13,616 bases of DNA from a virus. The notes under the pieces were generated by a model. It had not been told where the DNA came from. It saw only the letters and a program-made list of their open reading frames with translations, and did not search any database. Below, one piece after another: positions 171-11,213 of the stretch (position 1 is the first letter of the stretch; each line of letters starts with the position of its first letter). The translations under genes were made by a program, and so were the position numbers. Location: the UHGV virus genome UHGV-0269933; one strand, 5' to 3'.

Positions 171-944
171 ATGGTGTACATGAAGTCTATTCTTGATGAA
201 CTTAGTACTGATATTGAGCGCGCTGAAAGTCTACAGTCCCAGCTGATTAGCGTAGCTACTGGCGGACCTGCGTTACCATATGAATATCAGGAGCTAAGAC
301 GTTTTTTTGTTGAATCACCACTATATAGCAACATTATTCCCTCTTTCGTAAAAACAAACCGCAACACCGACCAATTTTGGCAATTTATTAAATACAAATT
401 TGGTACATATGCTGAAAGAAGGCAGTACATTTGGGATGAATTCCAAGAATTGATGGACTATCTGGAGGGTAAAAACAAAGCACCCGCAGATGAGGACATC
501 TCTGATGTATTAAGACGGTTTGATGAGGATGGTGTTCACACCGTGTGGATGAAAGCACTAGAACGGCGCCACACAGACCCGGATGGGGCGATAACCTCTG
601 CAAGAACACTTCTAGAAACGGTTTGCAAGCACATTCTTGATGATATGGATGTCCCCTATAATAATAAAAATATAGAAATGTCAGAGCTTTATAAAATACT
701 ATCAAAAGAACTTAACTTATCTGCCGACCAGCATACTGAAAGTATTTTCAAACAAATTCTTGGTGGTTGTTCAGCCGTTGTAAATGGGCTAGGTACTCTT
801 CGTAATAAACTTGGTGACGCACATGGAAAGAATCGCTCATCAGTTAAACCATCACCAAGGCATGCAGAACTCGCTGTAAATTTATCAGGCTCAATGGCTC
901 TTTTTCTAATTAGCTCATGGTTAAACCTTAAAGATAAAAATTAA
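171..944 (+). CDS. Abortive-infection family protein (Abi_C-like C-terminal domain); likely true start ATG at 180
   Basis: 257-aa ORF. C-terminal LGTLRNKLGDAHGK motif after a TLLETVCKHIL helix resembles the Abi_C family signature (from memory). AT-rich relative to flanks, own promoter and SD. Confidence 0.55.
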   Translation: MVYMKSILDELSTDIERAESLQSQLISVATGGPALPYEYQELRRFFVESPLYSNIIPSFVKTNRNTDQFWQFIKYKFGTYAERRQYIWDEFQELMDYLEGKNKAPADEDISDVLRRFDEDGVHTVWMKALERRHTDPDGAITSARTLLETVCKHILDDMDVPYNNKNIEMSELYKILSKELNLSADQHTESIFKQILGGCSAVVNGLGTLRNKLGDAHGKNRSSVKPSPRHAELAVNLSGSMALFLISSWLNLKDKN

Positions 945-1227: not shown

Positions 1228-2001
1228 GTAAGCGTGCAGTGAGAACCGTATTGACGAAGTGAAGCTGGTCAGGCAGGCAGAGTAACCCGCCACGGGAGCA
1301 GAGCACCCACCCGGTTCACAGGCCAGTCGGCGATGACATCAAGTACATAATGCAGATAGCGTTCCGGATCCACGCCGTTTAATTTGCACGTCCCGATAAG
1401 ACTGTACAGTGACGCACCGCGCTCACCACCATGATCCGAGCCGAAGAACAGCCAGTTTTTTCTCCCCAGACTGACCCGTCGTAGGGCGTTTTCGGCAATG
1501 TTATTATCCACCTCCACCCAGCCATCTTCTGCATAGCGGATCAGCGCCGGCCACTGGTTCAGCGCATACCCGAACGCCTTCGCCAGTTCTGAGTGCCTTG
1601 AGAGGGTTTTCTGTTTCTCCCGCAGCCACCCCTCCAGTGACGCCAGCAGCGGCAGCACTTTTTGGTGCCGGACTGCCTGCCGTTCCTCTGCTCTTTTACC
1701 TCTGATCTCCGACTCGATGGCATACAGCTCGCCGATCCGTTTCAGCGCCTCTTGCGAATGTCTGTCCTCTGGCTTTACTGGTGTTCATGTATTTTTCAAA
1801 GCCGGGGAGTGTAACTGACAGCGCTCGAAATACCTCTCGCGGTGTGCTAATCACTCGCTGGTGCTCCCGGCCAAATAATCTGATCAGAGGACCACTCAGT
1901 TTGATAGTTGTCATGACTTCTGCACATGGATTCATAGCCGCCTCAGTTAATTTTGGAGAAAGGAAACGGTTAGGCTTTTTTTAGCTCAAAATAGCGCTTA
2001 C
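1228..2001 (-). mobile_element. Internally deleted IS66-family insertion sequence remnant (~0.77 kb)
   Basis: GTAAGCG-type terminal sequences at both ends (1228 on +, 2001 on -). Contains the C-terminal ~170 aa of an IS66 TnpC-like transposase. No matching 8-bp target-site duplication (ctgaatgt vs catttcct). Confidence 0.7.
1269..1783 (-). pseudogene. IS66-family transposase (TnpC) C-terminal fragment
   Basis: Translation ...ALKRIGELYAIESEIRG...LAKAFGYALNQWPALIRYAEDGWVEVDNNIAENALRRVSLGRKNWLFFGSDHGGERGASLYSLIGTCKLNGVDPERYL...LLPW matches the conserved TnpC C-terminus. In-frame stop lies upstream at ~1786; N-terminal two-thirds absent. Confidence 0.8.
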
Positions 2002-2701: not shown

Positions 2702-3043
2702 TTACACCAGTGCCAGTGGCTGAACAGAAATACCAGAGCCAACGAACGCTGCTACTTTTGCAGAAAGCGTGGTTACATCATCAGGCCAGTTAAGGGCATC
2801 AACATTCAGCACGCCAGCTTTGTAGACCTGAGCATGTGTCTGGCTTGCGGTATCAACAGCAAAGCAAGATACATAGACAGCCTGCCCGGCATGCGCCCCA
2901 TCCCAGACCACCAAAGCCCCATTGGTAGCATCCTGCATAAGTGGAGTCAGCGCGGGAATAACGCCCTTTGCTCCAGCGAAGATACCCAGAGTTGTCACCA
3001 GCGCTTCAGTACCGGCCGCCAGTTCAGTGTAATGCGTCGTCAT
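2702..3043 (-). CDS. Phage head decoration protein, lambda gpD-like
   Basis: 113 aa; ALTPLMQDATNGALVVWDG...VYKAG...AAFVGSGISV aligns with lambda gpD (AMTPLMLDTSSRKLVAWDG...FYKSG...TAFAGTAISIV). AAGGAG SD; translationally coupled to upstream capsid gene. Confidence 0.75.
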   Translation of the reverse strand: MTTHYTELAAGTEALVTTLGIFAGAKGVIPALTPLMQDATNGALVVWDGAHAGQAVYVSCFAVDTASQTHAQVYKAGVLNVDALNWPDDVTTLSAKVAAFVGSGISVQPLALV

Positions 3044-3052
3044 GATTACTCC

Positions 3053-4093
3053 TTAGGCCACGCGAACGGTGACAAAACGGTTGATACGGGCCGGGATAGG
3101 CTGCGGTGCGGAGTGGGTCTGAACGTACTCAATAGCTGGGTCGCCAGGAACAATGTAGTTCTTTGGCGCCAGCTCAGCTTTGGTAATACCCATACGGATG
3201 AGCTCTGGATCCTGAATTCCGCCGTAGGCCACAATGCCCTGCAGGGCGGTGTTTCCCAGCACCATCAAATCAGGATCGAGGAAGTGCTTTTCGGTGCCGT
3301 CTTCGTCGGTATAGCGACCGCTATAAACCACAATAGCCACATCGCCCATATAGCCTTTAAAGCTCACTGAATCGCCCAGGTCTTTAAGTGCTGTTTCAAG
3401 CTGTGCGTTGGAGCCGCGGCGCGTGTCGAGTACATCTTTAATCGCTTTGAAAGAACGATATTTTTTCCAGACGTTCCCGCCCATAATGATGATATTGGTT
3501 ACGCCTTCACTCAGCTCTGAATAGGTTTCAATATCGTCATTTGGATCAAACGTCGTTTTATCTTTACCTGACCAGGCAGCGCCACCAGCCTGAGTGATTA
3601 TATTCTGGGATTTGATATTCCAGTCCAGCTCATAACGCTCGATCCCTTCCCCCTCAATAATATTTTTCCCGGTAGTTACAGCCTGAACAGCCAGCCATTC
3701 AATACGCGCACGAATAGCAATAGACTGTTTGAGGATTGACTGTTTTACCTTGATATTGCGGGTATCAAGCGTGCTGTATTGATCAGGAGTAACACCAGCA
3801 GGACGAACAGCCAGTTTGTTAGGGTCAATGTTGCTCTTTGGTTTCATGTAGCCAGGACGGATAGACTTGGACTCATATCCCTCATCACGCGCCACCTTAC
3901 TACCCACCATAGGCGAACAGAACGCCGCGATTGGAATATTTGGGTCGTCGATAGTGTCCAGGATGATATCGCGCGTTTCAAAAGTAACTGCGCGGGTAAA
4001 GAATAAATCAGTGAACAGGGTTTTTAGTTGCTTCTGAATATCCTCAGCGCTAACAACCCGAACCAGCGCCGCAGGTGAATATAAATCTGGCAT
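3053..4093 (-). CDS. Major capsid protein, lambda gpE-like
   Basis: 346 aa, full-length collinear similarity to lambda gpE (341 aa): PGYMKPK..., ITQAGGAAWSGKDKTTFDPNDDIETY..., FRSFKAIKDVLDTRRGSNAQLETALKDLG...YMGDVAIVVYSG...MVLGNT...YGGIQD...GDPA... SD GAGG upstream of ATG. Confidence 0.9.
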   Translation of the reverse strand: MPDLYSPAALVRVVSAEDIQKQLKTLFTDLFFTRAVTFETRDIILDTIDDPNIPIAAFCSPMVGSKVARDEGYESKSIRPGYMKPKSNIDPNKLAVRPAGVTPDQYSTLDTRNIKVKQSILKQSIAIRARIEWLAVQAVTTGKNIIEGEGIERYELDWNIKSQNIITQAGGAAWSGKDKTTFDPNDDIETYSELSEGVTNIIIMGGNVWKKYRSFKAIKDVLDTRRGSNAQLETALKDLGDSVSFKGYMGDVAIVVYSGRYTDEDGTEKHFLDPDLMVLGNTALQGIVAYGGIQDPELIRMGITKAELAPKNYIVPGDPAIEYVQTHSAPQPIPARINRFVTVRVA

Positions 4094-4366: not shown

Positions 4367-4646
4367 GGTGAAAATCACCCTACCCACAGCTTTAAAATTA
4401 AAAAATATCCTTTTAAGTGTTCACCCGTTCACCTTTGCGAATTTCTTAATTAAATTCATGTAGTTATAGGGTGAATACTACTCTTTCAGGTATTCACTAG
4501 TGTTCACCCTACCCTTCACCCTTTAGGGCAAAAAACAATCAAAAGGTGAACAGGTGAATACTTGGTGAATACTTAATAAATAAGTGTCCACCCCTTAACA
4601 CTCTGTTATTAATAGAATTTTAAACAGGGTGAATACTGGTGAACAC
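4367..4646. repeat. Iteron cluster of P4 ori/crr type (TGTTCACC / GTATTCACC), ~12 copies in both orientations
   Basis: TGTTCACC at 4418, 4426, 4501; GGTGAACA/GGTGAATAC at 4470, 4545, 4553, 4564, 4628, 4638; variants at 4490, 4513, 4585; GGTGAAAATCACC palindrome at 4367. Matches the P4 type I iteron motif bound by alpha (recalled). Confidence 0.7.
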
Positions 4647-4659
4647 TTTATCTATAACT

Positions 4660-5361
4660 TTACTCTACCCCTTCATTCTCAGTAGTGATTGCACATGATG
4701 GCATCCAGTCGCCAGAATCATCATGCAGGGTTACGTTAGAGCGTATGCCATGTTTGGTTTTCCGCTTCTGGTATTCCTTCCCATACTCAACCATTGCGCC
4801 AGGCATATCTGTACCGAACCGCATCAGTGAGACAGGCTTACTCAGGCCATTGGCTCTCATGTATGCCAGATAGGCGTGATACAGGTACTTGCGCGGGCTG
4901 AATGGCACTATCTCGGCATTACCGATAAACATCCCGTCACACACTACCGACGCCATCAGGTAGCCGCAGAAGTCCACCAGCGAATCACCTTCACGCTTGA
5001 TCGCCAGAGCCTCCTCTGATTTCTGCTGCTCATACAATAACCGTCTGGCTTCGTCCTGGTCTGCAAAACGTGTAAGCAGATGGCGGATAACTACAGCCAG
5101 TTCCCCTTCTATTTTCTCTGCCAGCATCGAGTCTCGCTCGTTTTCTGGTACAACCTCCGAGAAATTGAAAATAACCCGGCGCCGCGAAATCCCCCCGCTA
5201 CGGTCGCTGAATGTCATAGCATTGTTGTTTACCGCCAGCACCACCGCCGGAATACGGGTTGAATATGGTGCTTTATGTTTAGGATCGATAGACACCTTGT
5301 CACCACCAGTTATGGCCTTAATACCTGCACCATCGCCAGCGTACCGGGTCATATCAGGCAT
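4660..5361 (-). CDS. P4 alpha-type primase/helicase C-terminal (iteron-binding) domain homolog, stand-alone/truncated
   Basis: 233 aa beginning near the SF3-helicase arginine-finger region (AVVLAVNNNAMTFSDRSGGISRRRVIFNF). No Walker A/B or primase domain. Located immediately upstream of the TGTTCACC iterons, as the alpha 3' end is in P4. Confidence 0.55.
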   Translation of the reverse strand: MPDMTRYAGDGAGIKAITGGDKVSIDPKHKAPYSTRIPAVVLAVNNNAMTFSDRSGGISRRRVIFNFSEVVPENERDSMLAEKIEGELAVVIRHLLTRFADQDEARRLLYEQQKSEEALAIKREGDSLVDFCGYLMASVVCDGMFIGNAEIVPFSPRKYLYHAYLAYMRANGLSKPVSLMRFGTDMPGAMVEYGKEYQKRKTKHGIRSNVTLHDDSGDWMPSCAITTENEGVE

Positions 5362-5427
5362 AATGATCGTAATGTTCCTTTATTTCATGAATCGTAATAG
5401 GCATAAATTCTCCTTGTTTGTCTAACC

Positions 5428-5620
5428 TGCCGCATTTAGTGCCGCGTTTAGCAATGCCGCACTTAGCGCCGCACCAGTTTTCTCAAAAAATTACGCAAAC
5501 CCAGTAATGACGTGGGTTTCAGTGAAATGCCGCACTTAGCGCGTGTATACAGGGACTAAGTGCGGCATTTGGTCATAAAACATACTAAATGCCGCACATG
5601 CCGCACTTACCGCCGCATTT
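5428..5620. repeat. Cluster of >=5 copies of ATGCCGCACTTAGCGC-like repeats including a 15-bp perfect inverted repeat
   Basis: Copies at ~5428, 5455, 5527, 5554 (inverted), 5588-5620. AAATGCCGCACTTAG-N16-CTAAGTGCGGCATTT at 5526..5571. Hairpin aaaccca/tgggttt at 5497..5519. Confidence 0.6.
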
Positions 5621-6983
5621 ACTCGACTGTTACCGGGTAAAGGTTCTCACCCTCGATGCGAATAATTTGCTCACTCTCCAGCTTGTCCAGCCAGCGCGGG
5701 AATGACTTTCTCACTTTGTCTGAGCCCAGCGTTGCACGCAGATCGTCTTTAATGACGGAGATAGTGCATGGCTCCCCCTTAGCTGTTCGGCTGCGAACTG
5801 CCTGCCATAGTGCATGATGGTTATCGCTAAGACGGGATACATGGGCCAGTTCAGGCTCAACCTCTTTAGCCTCTCTCGGCTGATCGTGCACAACCAGAGA
5901 GCAAACAAGCTCGCCATCTTCATCGGTGTAAAGCTCTGCCGTTCTCAGGTCATACGCTTTACGCTCTGGCTCCTCCGCGTCTTTCATCTTGGTACAGGTC
6001 AGAATAAGCGCTTTTCCATCCCCTTCACGCTTAACGTTAAATTCAGTATCAAGCGCAGCGCGGAAAGCACTGGAACCGCGAGCGCCTTTCCCTTCATCTT
6101 TGCCGGAGTGGTGAACTACCAGCACCGTTGCACCCGTTTTCTGTTTGATAACGTCACACCCTTCAATAAATGCCCCCATATCACGAGCATCGTTCTCGTC
6201 GTTACCGCCAAAACAACGGGCCAGCGTATCGATCACCACCATGCGAACCGGCACACCACATTCGGCTTCAATCTGCCTGGCAGCCAGAAGAACTTCTGTA
6301 ACCTCTGACTCACGCACCGGGAACACCGGACGATTGACCAGCCAGAGGTTGTCTGCCTGTATGCCATGCACCTGTTCCCATGCCCGTATACGCCGGGGAA
6401 CACCTACACCACCCTCGCCAACCACATACAGCACCGCGCCGGGAGTGACCTTCTTCCCCGCCCATGGCAGACCAGCAGCGATATGACAGGCCCACGACAC
6501 GGCAAGAAAACTCTTATACGAACCGCTGGGGCCGTAAATGCTGCACAGTGATTGCGCTGGCAGAAAGTGTTTAAGGATATAGTCCTGACGGATATCAAAG
6601 CCCTCAGAACCGCGAGAGAGAGGCAGCTTTGTCCTGAACTTTGCACCAGCATCAGGGAATACGCGGTGAATGCGCTGCACGTCAGACAGCATGGCATTCA
6701 TTTCCCCTTCGCCTATCTCTTCCACCAGCACAGAACGCCGCGCGGTAATCATATGTTTGCGGTCGGTATCGAGATACCCGGCATCACAAAGCTCCTCATA
6801 CGGCATTGCTGCTATCTGGTTGAGGCGAGCCACCAGCTTTCCGTAACGGGTAGTGGGGTCCTTATGCTGGTGGAGAGCTTTATCCAAATCGCTGCGACTG
6901 TACTGCTTGCCATGCGCCCACAGATACGAACAGGTGAACAAGGCATCCGATACGGTTTCTACAGCTGTCAGTTGTACCGTCAT
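5619..6983 (-). CDS. RepA-like replicative helicase / AAA_25 (RecA-fold) ATPase with N- and C-terminal accessory domains
   Basis: 454 aa; Walker A GPSGSYKS, Walker B-like VVIDTLARCF, HHSGKDEGKGARGSSA motif typical of RSF1010 RepA/DnaB-like helicases. ATGA overlap with upstream gene. Confidence 0.75.
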   Translation of the reverse strand: MTVQLTAVETVSDALFTCSYLWAHGKQYSRSDLDKALHQHKDPTTRYGKLVARLNQIAAMPYEELCDAGYLDTDRKHMITARRSVLVEEIGEGEMNAMLSDVQRIHRVFPDAGAKFRTKLPLSRGSEGFDIRQDYILKHFLPAQSLCSIYGPSGSYKSFLAVSWACHIAAGLPWAGKKVTPGAVLYVVGEGGVGVPRRIRAWEQVHGIQADNLWLVNRPVFPVRESEVTEVLLAARQIEAECGVPVRMVVIDTLARCFGGNDENDARDMGAFIEGCDVIKQKTGATVLVVHHSGKDEGKGARGSSAFRAALDTEFNVKREGDGKALILTCTKMKDAEEPERKAYDLRTAELYTDEDGELVCSLVVHDQPREAKEVEPELAHVSRLSDNHHALWQAVRSRTAKGEPCTISVIKDDLRATLGSDKVRKSFPRWLDKLESEQIIRIEGENLYPVTVE

Positions 6984-7348
6984 TTTGGAATGCCCCCGCT
7001 CATCTGGAATTTGCCGATCAGAGGATGGAACCAGTATGCAGAGCCATATTTGCGCTTAGCACTGCGCAGCACCAACCGTGCCGCTTCCCTGAACTTTTCA
7101 TCAGGTGCAACGAACCCGCCTGATTTCAGTTTAACCAGCATCACCCCTGTGTTTTTCGCCAGCTCCTCAGCCTTTTTGGTTGAGATACCGTATTCAGCAG
7201 CCAGTGTTGCTACTGGCGTCATACCCGGAGGGATTTCTCCGCCCTGACTATCGGTAAGTGATTTAACCTGAGCCTCAAGGCGCAAGACCTTCTCAACCAG
7301 CAGATCAACGCGGTTAGCCAGTTCGTTAAACTTCACATTGCTGATCAT
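6980..7348 (-). CDS. Hypothetical protein with N-terminal coiled coil and putative HTH
   Basis: 122 aa; TPVATLAAEYGISTKKAEELAK looks HTH-like. ATGA start/stop overlaps on both sides. Confidence 0.55.
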   Translation of the reverse strand: MISNVKFNELANRVDLLVEKVLRLEAQVKSLTDSQGGEIPPGMTPVATLAAEYGISTKKAEELAKNTGVMLVKLKSGGFVAPDEKFREAARLVLRSAKRKYGSAYWFHPLIGKFQMSGGIPK

Positions 7349-7572
7349 GGTCTTGCCTCCTGCGTTTCAGGGTCTGAAAAAGTAGAAATATCCAGTGAGT
7401 TTGCCAGTTCGTCAGAAAGGCGCTGAGCCAGGTGCGTTAAACTCATTACATGGATACGCTCCGCCTCCCCCTTGATAGTTGAAAGGTAAGCAGCACATGA
7501 CATGAGCGCAGCAACCTCTTGCGCCAGTAACAGCAAATCTTTTTTGCTGCGGTAGGTGTAAAAGTTATCCAT
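7345..7572 (-). CDS. Hypothetical small protein (75 aa)
   Basis: Start ATG at 7572 overlaps upstream stop (ATGGATAA). Track ORF 7345..7689 extends upstream without support. Confidence 0.5.
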   Translation of the reverse strand: MDNFYTYRSKKDLLLLAQEVAALMSCAAYLSTIKGEAERIHVMSLTHLAQRLSDELANSLDISTFSDPETQEARP

Positions 7573-7750
7573 TGAGCGCTCCCGTTTCATTCTGCTCCAC
7601 CATGCTTGCCGCAAGTTGATCCGATACTCGTCTGGCCAGACTGATAAGGTTTTCACGCTCAACCTGATCAACGTCGTACTCTTCGACAACCATCAACAAC
7701 GCAGCCAGTTCACAGGCTATTGACGCACTTTTATTGGTTAATTCACGCAT
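7565..7750 (-). CDS. Hypothetical small protein (61 aa)
   Basis: Start ATG at 7750 in ATGCGTGA overlap with upstream gene stop. Track ORF 7565..7912 is an upstream extension in another gene's sequence. Confidence 0.5.
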
Positions 7751-8012
7751 GGCGCACCTCCTGAATAGCTGCGCTATCGAACTCCCAGCCACGGCGGGTG
7801 GTGTAATCGAAAAACGCAACGCGACAAGGAGACTGGGCGCGGATTTTGGCAGCGAAAACCAAATCCCAGCCGGGGAATGCAGAGCGGGCTTTATCTTCCG
7901 TATCAGCATCAAAGCGGAGCACTACAGGTGTGCATTTTGGGGTGTGGTCTGGGGTTGCCAGGAATAACCATGTAAATTCCGGGCGAGTTTGGGTATGCTG
8001 TTGATCAGCCAT
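7743..8012 (-). CDS. Hypothetical protein (89 aa), first gene of replication operon
   Basis: Start ATG at 8012 with GGAG SD ([13 protein letters not shown]...). The 318-aa track ORF 7743..8699 upstream of this Met is low-complexity, Cys/Arg/Ser-rich non-coding translation. Confidence 0.55.
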
Positions 8013-8139
8013 AACTGTTACTCCGATTAACGGTTTGGTTAGACGCCCTGGTACTGCTCTAACAGTCCGGGGCGTTGCTTTTTGGTATGCACCTGCCATA
8101 CACTTGATTACCATTTCAAAGTAATCAGGTGTCAACCAA

Positions 8140-8319
8140 ATGTCAACCATAGAAATTAAAGCCAAAGGTAACAAGCAGATCGCATTACGCGTAGAACCAA
8201 ACCTAGAAGAAGGAATTAAACAGGCTCTGGCGCAAGATGGTGACGCTTCTGTATCAGCATGGATAAAGCGAATAATCCGCAAAGAGTTACAGCAGCGAGG
8301 CATTGAGCCGAAAAGCTGA
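8140..8319 (+). CDS. Small ribbon-helix-helix-like DNA-binding protein (59 aa), candidate island regulator/repressor; absent from ORF track
   Basis: ATG 8140 with AGGTG SD 9 nt upstream; stop TGA 8317..8319. KQIALRVEP strand plus two amphipathic helices fits Arc/MetJ/CopG topology. Divergent from the replication operon across a 127-bp region. Confidence 0.5.
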
Positions 8320-8499
8320 TACCCAAAATCTGGGTAACGGTCGAAACTACGGGAATTCTCCGGGGTATGCTGCATTGCAGTACACCCGGCACTCTGTTCC
8401 AGTTCTCCCCAGATTTGGGGAAATGGGGTATGCGCCAATGCCGTACACCCTAAACAGCCCAATTTCTGGGTAGTTTCACGTAACCGCGCCATTGACACA

Positions 8500-8519
8500 G
8501 TTCCTGTAATTACAGGAAC
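8500..8519. promoter_or_regulatory. 20-bp perfect palindrome GTTCCTGTAATTACAGGAAC adjacent to TTGACA; candidate operator
   Basis: Perfect dyad symmetry. TTGACA hexamer at 8492..8497 immediately upstream. Confidence 0.45.
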
Positions 8520-8588
8520 GCTCAGGCTTTGACCACCAGCATTAACCCTGGTATCCTGACTTTGCTTAATTTTTTGGTAGTGACATTG

Positions 8589-8616
8589 GCGGCCCGGCAT
8601 GGCCGCTTTTGTTTTA
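8589..8616 (+). terminator. Rho-independent terminator on + strand
   Basis: gcggcc-cggcat-ggccgc hairpin followed by ttttgtttta; ~270 nt downstream of the RHH gene stop. Confidence 0.55.
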
Positions 8617-8634
8617 TGTGACATTCCCCACCCC

Positions 8635-8844
8635 TCACGCTGCTTTGCTGCGGCTCTGCTGCCATGCTGTGACCTCAGAAAGAAGCCAACCAACGGCACG
8701 ACCTCCCAGCTTACGGCGGGCGGGAAAGCTCCCCTCTTTTTCCATCATGTATCGAGTGGTTCGACAAATACCGGTTAGCTGTCGGCACTCAGCCTCACGG
8801 ATAACTCTTTCTGCTGGCTGCTGGGATTGTTTAATATTGTTCAT
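8635..8844 (-). CDS. alpA: AlpA-family transcriptional regulator (prophage CP4-57-type)
   Basis: 69 aa from MNNIKQ; ...[43 protein letters not shown] is the AlpA HTH signature. The longer 81-aa reading would translate through a hairpin and has no SD. Confidence 0.75.
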
Positions 8845-8880
8845 AAAAAAATGCTCTCGTTCGCTAAGGTTCGAGAGCAT
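8845..8880 (-). terminator. Terminator-like hairpin with 9-bp perfect stem directly abutting the alpA start codon
   Basis: On the - strand, atgctctcg-aaccttagcgaa-cgagagcat followed by ttttttt then ATG of alpA. The 3' arm contains the only SD-like GAGAG. Confidence 0.45.
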
Positions 8881-8959
8881 TGTTATTCAACAAAATTATC
8901 ACCGCGACGGTGAGAAAAAAATTATATTCCTCTAAAGGAGTTACCCTTATTCAGTTATA

Positions 8960-9802
8960 TCAAGATAATTCTTTCCTGATTTTATCTAAAGAATCACTTC
9001 TTATGATTTTATCCAAGAAAGGTTTTACCGTTTGAGCTATGGCAAAGGACTCCTTTTCTCCATCCGGGAACAGGGATACTGCGAGTACGCCAAGAGATAT
9101 TTTGCTGTCGGTAGCGCTTTCCCATGACATCAAATCAATAAGTGGAATTATTCTGTAGTCAATTATTTTCCGTCTGACGCTCTCCCAGTCCCCTGAGACT
9201 GGCTTATCTGGTTCAGGTATTCCGAGTTCTTCGCGCCATTTTGGGAGGAGGTTCGTGAATGCTTCAATCAAAAGATCATCTCTGTTGTTTAAGTCAACAG
9301 TAATCATCACGTTTTCCACAACATCAGAAAGTAAGTTTACTGGCTCGCGCATGATAGCCCAAAACATACCGTTATCTGCTGTAAACAAATCCCCCACCAA
9401 ATCATCGTCAACTACTATTGGCTTTCCTTTCCAGTGACCTTTATCAGCATTGATTTTATTTAAAAATGCCAACTCAAATCTCATTAATGGTTTTATACCA
9501 TCGCCGTAACTTAATTTTAGCAAATCAGGCTGAGTCTTGTACTCGTATTCCTTTTGCTTTTCAAGAAACCATTCTTCTGCTTTGAGTTCCCCGAATGGAT
9601 CACCAAAATTATTGTTAAGCGGGTATTTAGCACCATATTGCAAACCATAGTCAGGGCAGTCTGTATTTTTTATTGCTAAATCATCGCATCGCCAATAGAG
9701 CTGACGAAACAAATCCTTATCAGACATATTTTCAAGGTCATCATATTTTTCCAAGCTGAATGACTTTGGTAAGTCTCTTTTACTGTTAATTTTTTTTGTC
9801 AT
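8960..9802 (-). CDS. Hypothetical protein (280 aa), AT-rich cargo gene translationally coupled to integrase; function unknown
   Basis: ATG overlaps the integrase stop codon (ATGA). Markedly lower GC than neighbours; acidic, Lys/Asp/Glu-rich; no motif recognised. Confidence 0.6.
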   Translation of the reverse strand: MTKKINSKRDLPKSFSLEKYDDLENMSDKDLFRQLYWRCDDLAIKNTDCPDYGLQYGAKYPLNNNFGDPFGELKAEEWFLEKQKEYEYKTQPDLLKLSYGDGIKPLMRFELAFLNKINADKGHWKGKPIVVDDDLVGDLFTADNGMFWAIMREPVNLLSDVVENVMITVDLNNRDDLLIEAFTNLLPKWREELGIPEPDKPVSGDWESVRRKIIDYRIIPLIDLMSWESATDSKISLGVLAVSLFPDGEKESFAIAQTVKPFLDKIIRSDSLDKIRKELS

Positions 9803-11022
9803 CTTGCGACCTCAAGAATAGTAACATTTGAGATATCAGAGGTAATAACCTCTAATCTCTGCATCCATTTATTCAGTGCATCCAGCTTTTCAGGTAAATA
9901 CTGACTGCGGTTATATACGGACATGACACCGCCCAGCGCATGGCCCAGAAGCTGCTCGACAACATGCGGAGCAATTCCCATGTTGTTCAGAGTCGTGGAA
10001 AACGTACGGCGTAGATCGTGAAGCGTCCACGGTTCAGAGTGGCCCAGACGCTTATACAACATCCTTCCCCACTGACTGACAGCTTCCGGTTTCTTTATCT
10101 CTCCAAGCAAAAGCCCTGTGCTTTGGTGCTGCTCTAAGAGCTGTTTGATAAATGGGCGGATATCTACGGGAATAGGACGTAGTATTTTCTCACCACCTTT
10201 GCTGTGCTCTTTAGGTACAGTCCAAACCCAATCACTTAGATCCCATTCGGTTACGCGAGACAATCTCAACTCCTGAGTTCGGCACCCAAACACTACTAGC
10301 AGACGTAGCAGCGAGGAGTAGTAGGGCTTGAATTTCAAGCCTGAACACTCCCGCCATATATCAGCCAGTTCTTGCCGGGTATGTTCCCTGTCCCGTTTAT
10401 TCTGTTTACGTCCAACATCATCAATGGTCAGATCGTCCAGGACATTACTCACCGCGTACCGATGAACACGGCAGAACTTGAGGGCTTGCTTACACATTTG
10501 CAGAAGATAGCCAGCAGCTACAGGAGCCTCATCTCTCACCCTGCTGAAACACTCCAGCCAGTGGCGGGTTTCGCACATAGAGAGGGGAAACGCCCCAATA
10601 TATGGGTAGATATGCTTATTGAGCTGTTCTATATGCTTTTCTACATTAGCCCGTTTATGAGATGCATATTCCCTTATCCAGTATTCAAGTGCCTCTTTTA
10701 CAGTTACCGGCTTAAGTGTTTCCTGTGTGGTGACAGTTAACTGGTGTTTCGGGTTCTTCCCCTCAGCAAGCCAGGCACGACATTGATCTCGCTTTGCCCT
10801 CGCGGCCTTAAGTGAAAGATCGGGATAGTTACCTAACTTCAAACGCTGAGGGGCAGTACTGCGTCCACCAATACGGTATGTAAAATACCAGGTCATTATG
10901 CCTATCTTTGACACCTTTACGCTCAGGCCATCACCATCAGCGTAAAAGCTATCACCGGGGCTTTCCCTCCCAACCATCTTGCGGAGCGATGTATCGCTTA
11001 ACTTGTTCGTTCCACCAGCCAT
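9799..11022 (-). CDS. int: Site-specific tyrosine recombinase, P4-type integrase (Arm-binding N-domain + catalytic domain)
   Basis: 407 aa. N-terminal ...DGDGLSVKVSKIGIMTWYFTYRIGG...LKLGNYPDLSLKAARAKRD arm-binding pattern. C-terminal HDLRRTFST...LGHALGGVMSVYNRSQY catalytic motifs, similar to P4 Int. GAGG SD. Confidence 0.9.
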   Translation of the reverse strand: MAGGTNKLSDTSLRKMVGRESPGDSFYADGDGLSVKVSKIGIMTWYFTYRIGGRSTAPQRLKLGNYPDLSLKAARAKRDQCRAWLAEGKNPKHQLTVTTQETLKPVTVKEALEYWIREYASHKRANVEKHIEQLNKHIYPYIGAFPLSMCETRHWLECFSRVRDEAPVAAGYLLQMCKQALKFCRVHRYAVSNVLDDLTIDDVGRKQNKRDREHTRQELADIWRECSGLKFKPYYSSLLRLLVVFGCRTQELRLSRVTEWDLSDWVWTVPKEHSKGGEKILRPIPVDIRPFIKQLLEQHQSTGLLLGEIKKPEAVSQWGRMLYKRLGHSEPWTLHDLRRTFSTTLNNMGIAPHVVEQLLGHALGGVMSVYNRSQYLPEKLDALNKWMQRLEVITSDISNVTILEVAR

Positions 11023-11195: not shown

Positions 11196-11213
11196 AAATA
11201 CGGCATGAACTAA
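11196..11213 (+). other. fis: Last six codons of fis (K-Y-G-M-N-stop) at the island/chromosome junction
   Basis: aaa tac ggc atg aac taa encodes the conserved Fis C-terminus. Stop lies 85 bp upstream of the yhdJ ATG. Sequence upstream is integrase leader, not fis. Confidence 0.5.

Follow-up and report, generated by a model that had tools for sequence, protein, structure and literature searches.

A probable P4-like early operon in a fis-integrating phage satellite of Escherichia coli

Introduction

A close counterpart of the genes discussed here is the left operon of P4. In the P4 sequence, vis is followed by eta, a frame of 199 codons whose last 65 codons are kil, and then by epsilon, orf151, cnr, alpha and the origin (crr/ori). 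The ATG of eta overlaps the vis stop (ATGA), and kil and epsilon each overlap the next gene by 8 nucleotides (nt). Translation of eta/kil has an anti-termination role, and Kil is a truncated form that functions in cell killing (PMC10111431). A comparable string of genes lies on the minus strand of UHGV-0269933, a virus genome of which the whole 13,616-nt stretch analysed is called the window below.

Another group of described systems is the phage-inducible chromosomal islands (PICIs). Their genes are ordered in four zones, Integration, Bro, Replication and Late, and more than 3,500 islands integrated at fis have been found, nearly all of them PICI-like (PMC10111431). In the PICIs of Gram-negative bacteria, AlpA is a helper-induced, self-activating switch (PMC6092414). 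Induction and mobilisation by helper phages have been demonstrated for EcCICFT073 and for a Klebsiella fis PICI (PMC6092414, PMC10111431).

With a probability of roughly 0.7, the region described here is the early transcription unit of a fis-integrating PICI in E. coli, built like the P4 left operon and devoted to regulation, host takeover and replication. The unit consists, in this order, of alpA, an eta-like leader ending in a gene called ORF1, a slot holding orf61 and orf75, orf122, a replicase gene and an iteron origin. Descriptions follow the minus-strand reading, and all coordinates are in window numbering.

Identity of the island

The element is a fis PICI, a catalogued class of phage satellite. 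It was recognised as such because of its att block and its location between fis and yhdJ. The block, TACGGCATGAACT (11199-11211, plus strand), lies between the integrase gene and yhdJ and matches exactly the consensus att identity block of fis-integrating PICIs (PMC10111431). The flanks are 99% identical to yhdJ-yhdU-acrS of E. coli. Islands of relatives sit between fis and yhdJ; the fis-side end of the present island lies outside the window.

The genes by which a fis PICI is recognised, namely int, alpA and a replicase gene, are all present and co-oriented with an iteron origin. The ORF map places a tyrosine integrase at 9799-11022 (minus strand). The alpA gene (8635-8880, minus strand; Pfam Phage_AlpA, 8.6e-16), which encodes a regulator/excisionase like P4 Vis, lies directly upstream of the operon, and its product is 99% identical to the helix-turn-helix (HTH) regulator of the E. 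coli relatives.

The Gram-negative fis and capsid-forming PICIs, with EcCICFT073 as their model, show the same co-oriented series of int, alpA, small genes, replicase, iteron origin and late genes. They likewise share the exact fis att block, the fis-yhdJ location, and relatives with capsid, protease, portal, HNH and terminase genes. One difference lies in the replicase. The PICI models that have been studied carry Pri-Rep or primase-type replicases, whereas the window carries a RepA-type helicase.

Overlapping genes of the operon

Five open reading frames (ORFs) follow one another on the minus strand. The first is ORF1 (ATG 8012 to TGA 7743), which encodes an Icd/Kil-like protein of 89 amino acids (aa). 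The variable accessory slot comes next, with two small acidic proteins encoded by orf61 (ATG 7750 to TAA 7565; 61 aa, pI 4.3) and orf75 (ATG 7572 to TGA 7345; 75 aa, pI 4.9). The basic protein of orf122 (ATG 7348 to TGA 6980; 122 aa, pI 9.8) precedes the replicase, a RepA-type helicase of the SF4/RecA fold and a likely initiator (ATG 6983 to TAA 5619; 454 aa). Stop and start overlap at each junction, as ATGCGTGA (7750-7743), ATGGATAA (7572-7565), ATGA (7348-7345) and ATGA (6983-6980). These coordinates and strings reproduce those of an earlier note on this DNA.

In the closest complete E. coli relatives, ~94% identical over the region, the genes as annotated by RefSeq show the same 8/8/4/4-nt overlaps. 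A broader set of 29 loci was compiled from 25 loci in Enterobacterales genomes fetched via orf122, three E. coli relatives and the window. It contains 118 junctions, 112 of which overlap (55 by 4 nt, 48 by 8 nt, 7 by 11 nt and 2 by 14 nt), the remaining six being gaps of 2-15 nt; the counts are approximate, since the chain-walker favours overlapping solutions. The overlapping architecture is clearly a trait of the family, beyond chance.

The small ORFs had been presented as real genes, and their dN/dS values bear this out. They are 0.11-0.44 for orf61 and 0-0.33 for orf75, which indicates purifying selection, and 0.04-0.08 for orf122.

Of the 118 downstream starts, 114 are preceded by a Shine-Dalgarno-like motif, among them the four of the window (AGGAGG, GGGAG, AGGAGG and GGGGG), and ORF1 has a GGAG 9 nt before its ATG. 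The earlier note had held that the overlaps imply obligate translational coupling. This does not follow, because each start has its own Shine-Dalgarno motif, and what can be read from the DNA is overlap only. The overlaps nevertheless make coupled translation plausible, and the genes are probably coupled.

The Kil-like gene and its long open leader

All the small proteins had been described as lacking an assigned function, which is wrong for ORF1. Its product matches the NCBIfam family NF033153, "host cell division inhibitor Icd-like" (4.5e-18), and phrog_1743 (1.2e-41). The 65-aa Kil protein of P4 matches the same two hidden Markov models (HMMs), at 1.6e-21 and 2.2e-21, and shares 39-41% identity with Icd-like domains from several related islands. 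Substitution rates within ORF1 are 0.209/0.214/0.39 at codon positions 1/2/3, with an excess at third positions. Icd-like genes occur in most Enterobacter satellites, in all three families (PMC13612085).

The 5' end of ORF1 is ambiguous. The gene had been taken to start at 8012, but its frame is open up to 8699 and an ATG at 8624 could also serve. From that ATG a long ORF of 293 codons (7743-8624, minus strand) runs to the ORF1 stop and contains the 89-aa ORF1 in frame. Its start lies 10 nt past the alpA stop (TGAGGGGTGGGGAATG) and is preceded by GGGGTGGGG. The long frame is open in 17 of the 29 loci, the window and 16 others, where it has 242-413 codons and ends in the Icd-like domain. Wherever an alpA homolog was located, the ATG of the long frame lies 8-11 nt after the alpA stop.

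The part of the frame upstream of ORF1, the extension, is kept open. The 4160 codons of the 17 extensions include no stop. On the same strand the remaining two frames have 239 and 254 of them, and from composition 8-18 would be expected in each locus. These counts rule out an accident of composition. Selection does not appear to act on an encoded protein. Outside the overlap with an antisense gene discussed below, substitution rates are flat at codon positions 1/2/3 (0.244/0.22/0.235), closely related pairs have a dN/dS of ~1.0-1.5, and indels are many. With these values, and with no Pfam match to the 293-aa product, a conserved protein was ruled out.

The likeness to P4 extends over the whole unit. 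In both, the AlpA/Vis gene comes first, a long ORF begins at its stop and has an Icd-like Kil at its 3' end, 8-nt overlaps lead to the next small genes, a small gene precedes the replicase, and origin repeats lie 3' of the replicase. The shared Icd-like families and the matching layout of the P4 sequence lead to the conclusion that ORF1 corresponds to kil and the long frame to eta. The five genes, which the earlier note had treated as a self-contained replication operon, are not a closed unit; as in P4, the unit extends upstream to alpA via the eta-like ORF.

The overlaps might instead be simple genome compaction with no regulatory role, and the long frame an accident of the gene antisense to it, which encodes a ribbon-helix-helix (RHH) protein. 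Overlaps of 4 and 8 nt are common in phage and operon genes, and both the Shine-Dalgarno motifs at all starts and an extension free of amino-acid constraint would suit this explanation. However, the RHH gene spans only ~60 of the 200-350 stop-free codons, and stops are as frequent in the other frames as expected, at 10-20 per locus. A start 8-11 nt after alpA recurs in loci of very different sequence, and translation of eta/kil has its described anti-termination role in P4 (PMC10111431). Compaction is therefore considered very unlikely as an explanation.

Some chains contain two Icd-like genes. In L012 and L028 one of them forms the end of the long ORF and the other one, 92-97 aa in length, is encoded upstream of orf122. 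The second gene stands directly before orf122 in L012, and a 65-aa gene intervenes in L028.

An exchangeable slot for small genes

The products of orf61 and orf75 have no match in Pfam, PHROG, NCBIfam or PADLOC, and orf75 has no tblastn match in 50,697 phage records. The orf61 family occurs in 8 of the 29 loci and the orf75 family in 6. In other loci, between one and four different small proteins, most of them acidic, take this place. These include a 102-103-aa family (12 loci), families of 62-65 aa, or a second Icd-like gene.

In this respect orf61 and orf75 behave as accessory cargo, with a position like that of P4 epsilon, and not as replisome subunits. Two other ideas about these genes were discarded. 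The products of orf61 and orf75 look alike by eye, but they gave no BLASTP alignment and fall into separate clusters, so they are not regarded as tandem paralogs. Membership of the small proteins in a defence system was rejected for want of a PADLOC match.

orf122 and the replicase

The orf122 gene occurs in all 29 loci by construction, as it served as the anchor of the search. The protein is 69-99% identical across the loci. It matches phrog_6610 (3.4e-65), a family listed in PHROG as of unknown function, and is narrowly distributed, with 27 representatives at 50% clustering among 1.8 billion proteins. It consists of a variable N-terminal long helix with heptad-like, coiled-coil spacing, a near-invariant centre and a winged HTH of the MerR/Xis type, and its C-terminal tail, LRSAKRKYGSAYW.HP..GKFQMSGG, is invariant. 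The orf122 and replicase genes overlap by 4 nt in 28 of the 29 loci and by 8 nt in the other.

Distant relatives show the same module as the C-terminal half of larger proteins with a Rha- or AntA-type N-terminus. Examples from a phmmer search of the 1.8 billion proteins are P0211 (4.2e-6), which contains Pfam Phage_pRha, and P0214 (2.7e-4), which contains AntA. By tblastn, phage genes for KilA-N and "anti-repressor" proteins are matched as well; Pfam detects neither ANT nor KilAC in orf122 itself. These similarities put orf122 within the domain-shuffling Bro/KilA-N/Rha/AntA network. The Bro network defines the Bro zone of PICIs (PMC10111431). It had been guessed that the small proteins include factors for host interference or helper derepression. 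The guess fits an Icd/Kil-like ORF1 and an orf122 related to the C-terminal domains of Rha, AntA and KilA-N "antirepressor" proteins.

Several kinds of replicase follow orf122. RepA-type proteins of 453-458 aa are found in 17 loci including the window. In 8 loci the next gene encodes a 579-599-aa protein of the D5_N/DUF5906/Pox_D5 type, which corresponds to residues ~300-775 of P4 alpha at 44-51% identity, and in one locus a 560-aa protein of the DUF5906/VapE type. Two loci encode a DUF927 protein; in L026 its gene directly follows orf122, and in L003 an additional 121-aa gene stands between the two. The last locus, L002, shows only the N-terminal part of the helicase gene, which is truncated beyond it.

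An N-terminal domain of ~134 aa is common to the RepA-, P4-alpha/D5- and VapE-type replicases (HMM E-values of 1e-25 to 1e-68); the same search found the DUF927 proteins to be without it. This implies that the ATPase part has probably been swapped behind a constant N-domain. Residues 1-134 of the window helicase (6581-6983) are shared with the replicases of L007, L012, L016, L019-L021, L024, L025 and L028. Because orf122 is constant, its overlap with the replicase gene short and the N-domain the only common part of the replicases, it is suggested that orf122 and the N-domain may work together.

The helicase has an N-terminal helical domain (~1-120), a RecA-fold SF4 ATPase core with a Walker A motif (AAA_25/RepA-type in Pfam) and a C-terminal winged helix (~387-450). 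P4 differs here, as the window replicase is a RepA-type helicase without a primase domain and is not an alpha protein. In RSF1010, the roles of initiator and helicase are split between RepC and RepA. Compared with the hexameric RSF1010 RepA helicase (PDB 1g8y), the window protein has ~130 extra helical residues at its N-terminus, as well as the C-terminal winged helix. Because of these additional parts, the helicase probably combines the two roles.

The probable origin (5426-5613) lies directly 3' of the helicase gene. It contains iterons, (A)ATGCCGCACTTAG, in both orientations and in at least six copies, forming two groups around an AT-rich spacer. Tested origins of E. coli PICIs have an iteron/AT-rich/iteron arrangement, with rep followed by the iteron origin (PMC6092414), and the layout in the window matches it. 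The ATGCCGCACTTAG iterons are kept after close relatives of the helicase, and other iterons stand after divergent or different replicases. In most loci the 350 nt downstream contain a 9-mer repeated at least three times, which varies with the replicase. Because the downstream repeats differ by replicase, the role of the replicase as an origin-specific initiator is supported. A role of orf122 as origin-specificity factor is unlikely, as orf122 remains 69-99% conserved while the iterons change with the replicase.

A second set of replication sequences lies downstream of the RepA-type module. A 233-aa ORF (4660-5361, minus strand) corresponds to the C-terminal part of a P4-alpha/D5-type replicase and is 96% identical to that of the Kluyvera locus L007. 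This truncated alpha-like ORF is followed by its own iterons, AGTATTCAC / GGTGAACAC (4490-4572), which Rfam mis-scored as MIR395. Together they look like the remnant of a displaced replicase and its origin.

Another way to read the five genes is as a dedicated replication operon, in which the four small proteins would be subunits or loaders held in a fixed ratio with the RepA helicase by obligate coupling. The overlap at every junction is itself conserved, orf122 is invariably the gene just before the replicase, and replicases of different ATPase classes share the N-domain. Moreover, P4 has cnr, a replication regulator, in the matching position before alpha. Such an operon is nevertheless unlikely. 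ORF1 belongs to the Icd/Kil-like family of division inhibitors and is not a replication protein, most related loci have other small genes in place of the orf61 and orf75 families, and the closest relatives of orf122 are antirepressor-type domain proteins. Each start also has its own Shine-Dalgarno motif. The earlier view of the small genes as fixed partners of a RepA helicase fails in particular because orf61 and orf75 are swapped in most loci and the cassette also precedes replicases that are not RepA-type.

An antisense gene inside the leader

The RHH gene (8140-8319, plus strand) lies wholly antisense inside the eta-like ORF. It is of the YlcI/YnfO or Arc-like kind and a candidate for the island repressor. 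It matches NCBIfam YlcI_YnfO_N (4.9e-4) and the Arc-like family phrog_228 (3.9e-5), and it is annotated by RefSeq in relatives. Of the 17 loci with a long frame, 16 have an RHH gene of ~60 aa, which is of one or the other of two types and keeps the same register relative to the long frame, so that third codon positions coincide; in L013, the only exception, none was identified. In the overlap segment the substitution rates are 0.124/0.187/0.448. Because these correspond to RHH codon positions 2/1/3, the RHH frame appears to be the selected frame in the overlap.

Two terminator-like elements flank the gene. The first, T1 (8042-8089, plus strand), is a hairpin with a T-run between the ORF1 start and the RHH start. 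RNAalifold found 14 pairs across 16 loci, 6 of them with compensatory double changes, and the inner part was flagged as terminator-like. T1 contains many G-U pairs on the plus strand. It is regarded as a plus-strand element because these pairs would be C-A mismatches on the operon strand. The second, T2 (8583-8617, plus strand), is an intrinsic terminator that adjoins the alpA stop. It was found in a terminator scan, and RNAalifold gave 10 pairs across 15 loci, 3 of them compensatory, followed by TTTTGTTTTAT. T2 probably ends the RHH transcript.

The extension also contains repeats. At ~8350-8470 (minus strand) its translated text is repetitive (GCTALAHTP...), and the number of units varies in L009, L026 and L027. 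It points to short repeats at the DNA level, in what would be the 3' untranslated part of the RHH transcript.

Between T1 and the RHH start lies a palindrome that differs from island to island. It is GTATGGCAGGTGCATAC in the window (~8093-8109), and other islands have AAGGTG-N5-CACCTT, GGTGTTCAACACC or further forms. The palindromes are candidate allele-specific operators for the RHH proteins. The alleles of RHH and ORF1 are the most divergent part (40-49% identity) of islands that are otherwise ~97% identical, which is the pattern expected of an immunity determinant.

In this part of the leader the island differs from P4. No RNA of the CI/C4/isrK type was detected in the window, and the leader contains the antisense RHH gene and two plus-strand terminators instead. 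A short antisense RNA that ends at T1 and covers the ribosome-binding site of ORF1 is conceivable. A search for a conserved promoter for such an RNA, placed inside ORF1, found none that was convincing; a weak candidate, CTGATA-17-TAGACT/TATGCT, occurs in 6 of the 17 loci, and nothing convincing was seen in the window.

A further comparison is offered by the immI operon of P1 and P7, the subject of work by Riedel, Heinrich and Schuster. It reportedly runs c4 RNA - icd - ant, with a leading Icd cistron that overlaps the next gene and is said to control what follows. In the island, likewise, an Icd-family gene is the first translated cistron and overlaps the next gene. The differences are that no C4 RNA match was found here and that the downstream genes are accessory and replication genes, not an antirepressor. 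L003 (E. coli KFu015) has a gene for a KilAC-domain antirepressor at 8489-9268, between the HTH regulator and the RHH gene. A P1-like pairing of antirepressor and Icd-like genes thus occurs in the same island family.

It is possible, though doubtful, that the P4 immunity RNA has been replaced here by an RHH/antisense switch. The RHH protein and antisense transcription would then gate the whole coupled operon, replicase included, and the eta-like frame would be kept open only to let ribosomes pass from alpA into the Kil-like gene. The eta-like ORF may in that event be a selected "ORF without protein" that overlaps a real gene on the opposite strand. Separately, orf122 may be a universal adaptor for the N-domain that three unrelated classes of replicase ATPase have in common.

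Proposed course of induction

The reading preferred here, that of a P4-like early unit, can be put as a series of steps. Infection by a helper phage would turn on alpA. Ribosomes leaving alpA would start the eta-like ORF 10 nt further on, cross ~200 unconstrained codons into the Kil-like domain, and then move from cistron to cistron via the 8/8/4/4-nt stop-start overlaps. Unbroken translation would shield the long transcript from Rho-dependent termination, and the replicase would be made only if the leading cistrons were translated. While the island is quiescent, the region of the ORF1 start would be shut by the antisense RHH gene together with its candidate operators and the two plus-strand terminators, a task that falls to the CI RNA in P4.

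The products can be given roles in the same scheme. The Kil-like protein would arrest division of the host cell, and orf61 and orf75 would be accessory factors directed at host or helper. The orf122 protein would act with the conserved N-domain of the replicase, or as a DNA-binding regulator. Finally, the helicase would bind its own iterons and replicate the excised island.

Several points weigh against this scheme. The coupling and the anti-termination proposed for the island are carried over by analogy from P4, and the Shine-Dalgarno motif of each cistron would permit independent initiation. A Rho-suppressing translation of the eta-like frame has indirect support only from the frame's staying open while its amino acids are unconstrained. 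The frame is also discontinuous in 12 of the 29 loci, with a chain of overlapping ORFs in its place in at least L004 and L025.

The kinship of the individual genes with those of P4 is likewise distant. ORF1 and P4 Kil could not be aligned by pairwise BLASTP and are linked only via HMMs and intermediate sequences. The products of orf61, orf75 and orf122 show no BLASTP similarity to P4 epsilon, orf151 or cnr, and homology among them was rejected at this pairwise level. No Rfam match to C4 or isrK was found at E<=1 over the whole window or at E<=10 on 7600-8950 with permissive filters. We infer the repression step of the model, since the P4 immunity RNA was not detected. The partnership of orf122 with the N-domain rests on co-occurrence in loci that were selected by orf122.

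The comparison places the gene string in the framework of kil/eta anti-termination in P4 and of AlpA-driven induction in PICIs, which suggests a testable role for each gene. Judged by its evolution, the core consists of the Kil-like leader, orf122, the replicase N-domain and the iterons matched to the replicase, and the cargo of orf61 and orf75. Since fis PICIs are numerous and the related capsid-forming PICIs move between species, the cargo slot could plausibly act as a reservoir of small proteins directed against host or helper. With its antisense RHH gene, the leader might also serve as a genetic switch that is compact and portable. The results refine a known kind of element and leave current concepts unchanged. 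The parts that merit further work are the antisense RHH gene, with its two terminators, inside an ORF selected to stay open; the pairing of orf122 with the N-domain; and the cargo slot.

Surroundings of the operon

At the far end of the island, a gene at 171-944 (plus strand) encodes a 257-aa AbiJ-like protein (PADLOC AbiJ, 1e-20; Pfam Abi_C). It may be anti-phage cargo.

The presence of this gene would suit yet another explanation, in which the operon is an anti-phage module for abortive infection or superinfection exclusion. A phage protein would trigger the Icd-like toxin and the genes linked to it, the cell would be killed or arrested, and the replication genes would be co-opted or incidental. 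An example of this kind is known from E. coli ECOR61, where a phage accessory protein triggered cell death and six linked genes including a primase were all needed in a laboratory strain (bioRxiv 10.1101/2023.04.06.535777). That module has an Icd-like protein whose N-terminal extension is long; it was reported as superinfection exclusion, not as a satellite operon, and its likeness to the present genes is by description only. By analogy, the description fits this type of operon and would show that its induction is toxic.

Against a purely defensive module stands the full satellite kit of the island, with integrase, att block, alpA, replicase, iteron origin and capsid genes. Close relatives have portal, protease and terminase genes as well, and growth arrest is also expected from ordinary satellite induction (PMC6092414). 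The defensive explanation is judged quite unlikely, although abortive infection and satellite induction may describe one phenomenon.

A 129-aa ORF at 1269-1658 (minus strand) resembles, by eye only, the C-terminal part of an IS66-family transposase. Because it is interposed between the AbiJ-like gene and the late genes, the late region of the island is probably disrupted. Three late genes (2308-2742, 2702-3043 and 3053-4093, minus strand) comprise a lambda E-type major capsid gene (Pfam, 8e-45) and a gene for a D-like decoration protein, followed by a third ORF. The same trio occurs at 71-91% identity in L010 and L027, downstream of the same type of helicase. P4 differs in this region too, as the window lacks sid, delta and psu and has a lambda E-type capsid gene instead.

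In the late region of the window, only the Phage_cap_E capsid gene and the D-like decoration gene are visible before the IS66-like fragment, which sets it apart from the capsid-forming PICIs. Packaging genes of the HK97 type were found in L001-L003. They extend from capsid to terminase in L001 and from a protease remnant to terminase in L002, and the stretch fetched for L003 contains only capsid, protease and portal. Between them, the relatives carry capsid, protease, portal, connector, HNH and terminase genes, which is the layout of a capsid-forming PICI.

Upstream of the operon, int and alpA are separated by a DUF6387 gene (8960-9802, minus strand), which has a 4-nt overlap with the int stop. 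Unrelated genes take its place in L003 and other loci, and the position is another variable slot. Finally, the third ORF of the late trio resembles the alpA region, with tblastn matches at the alpA positions of several loci.

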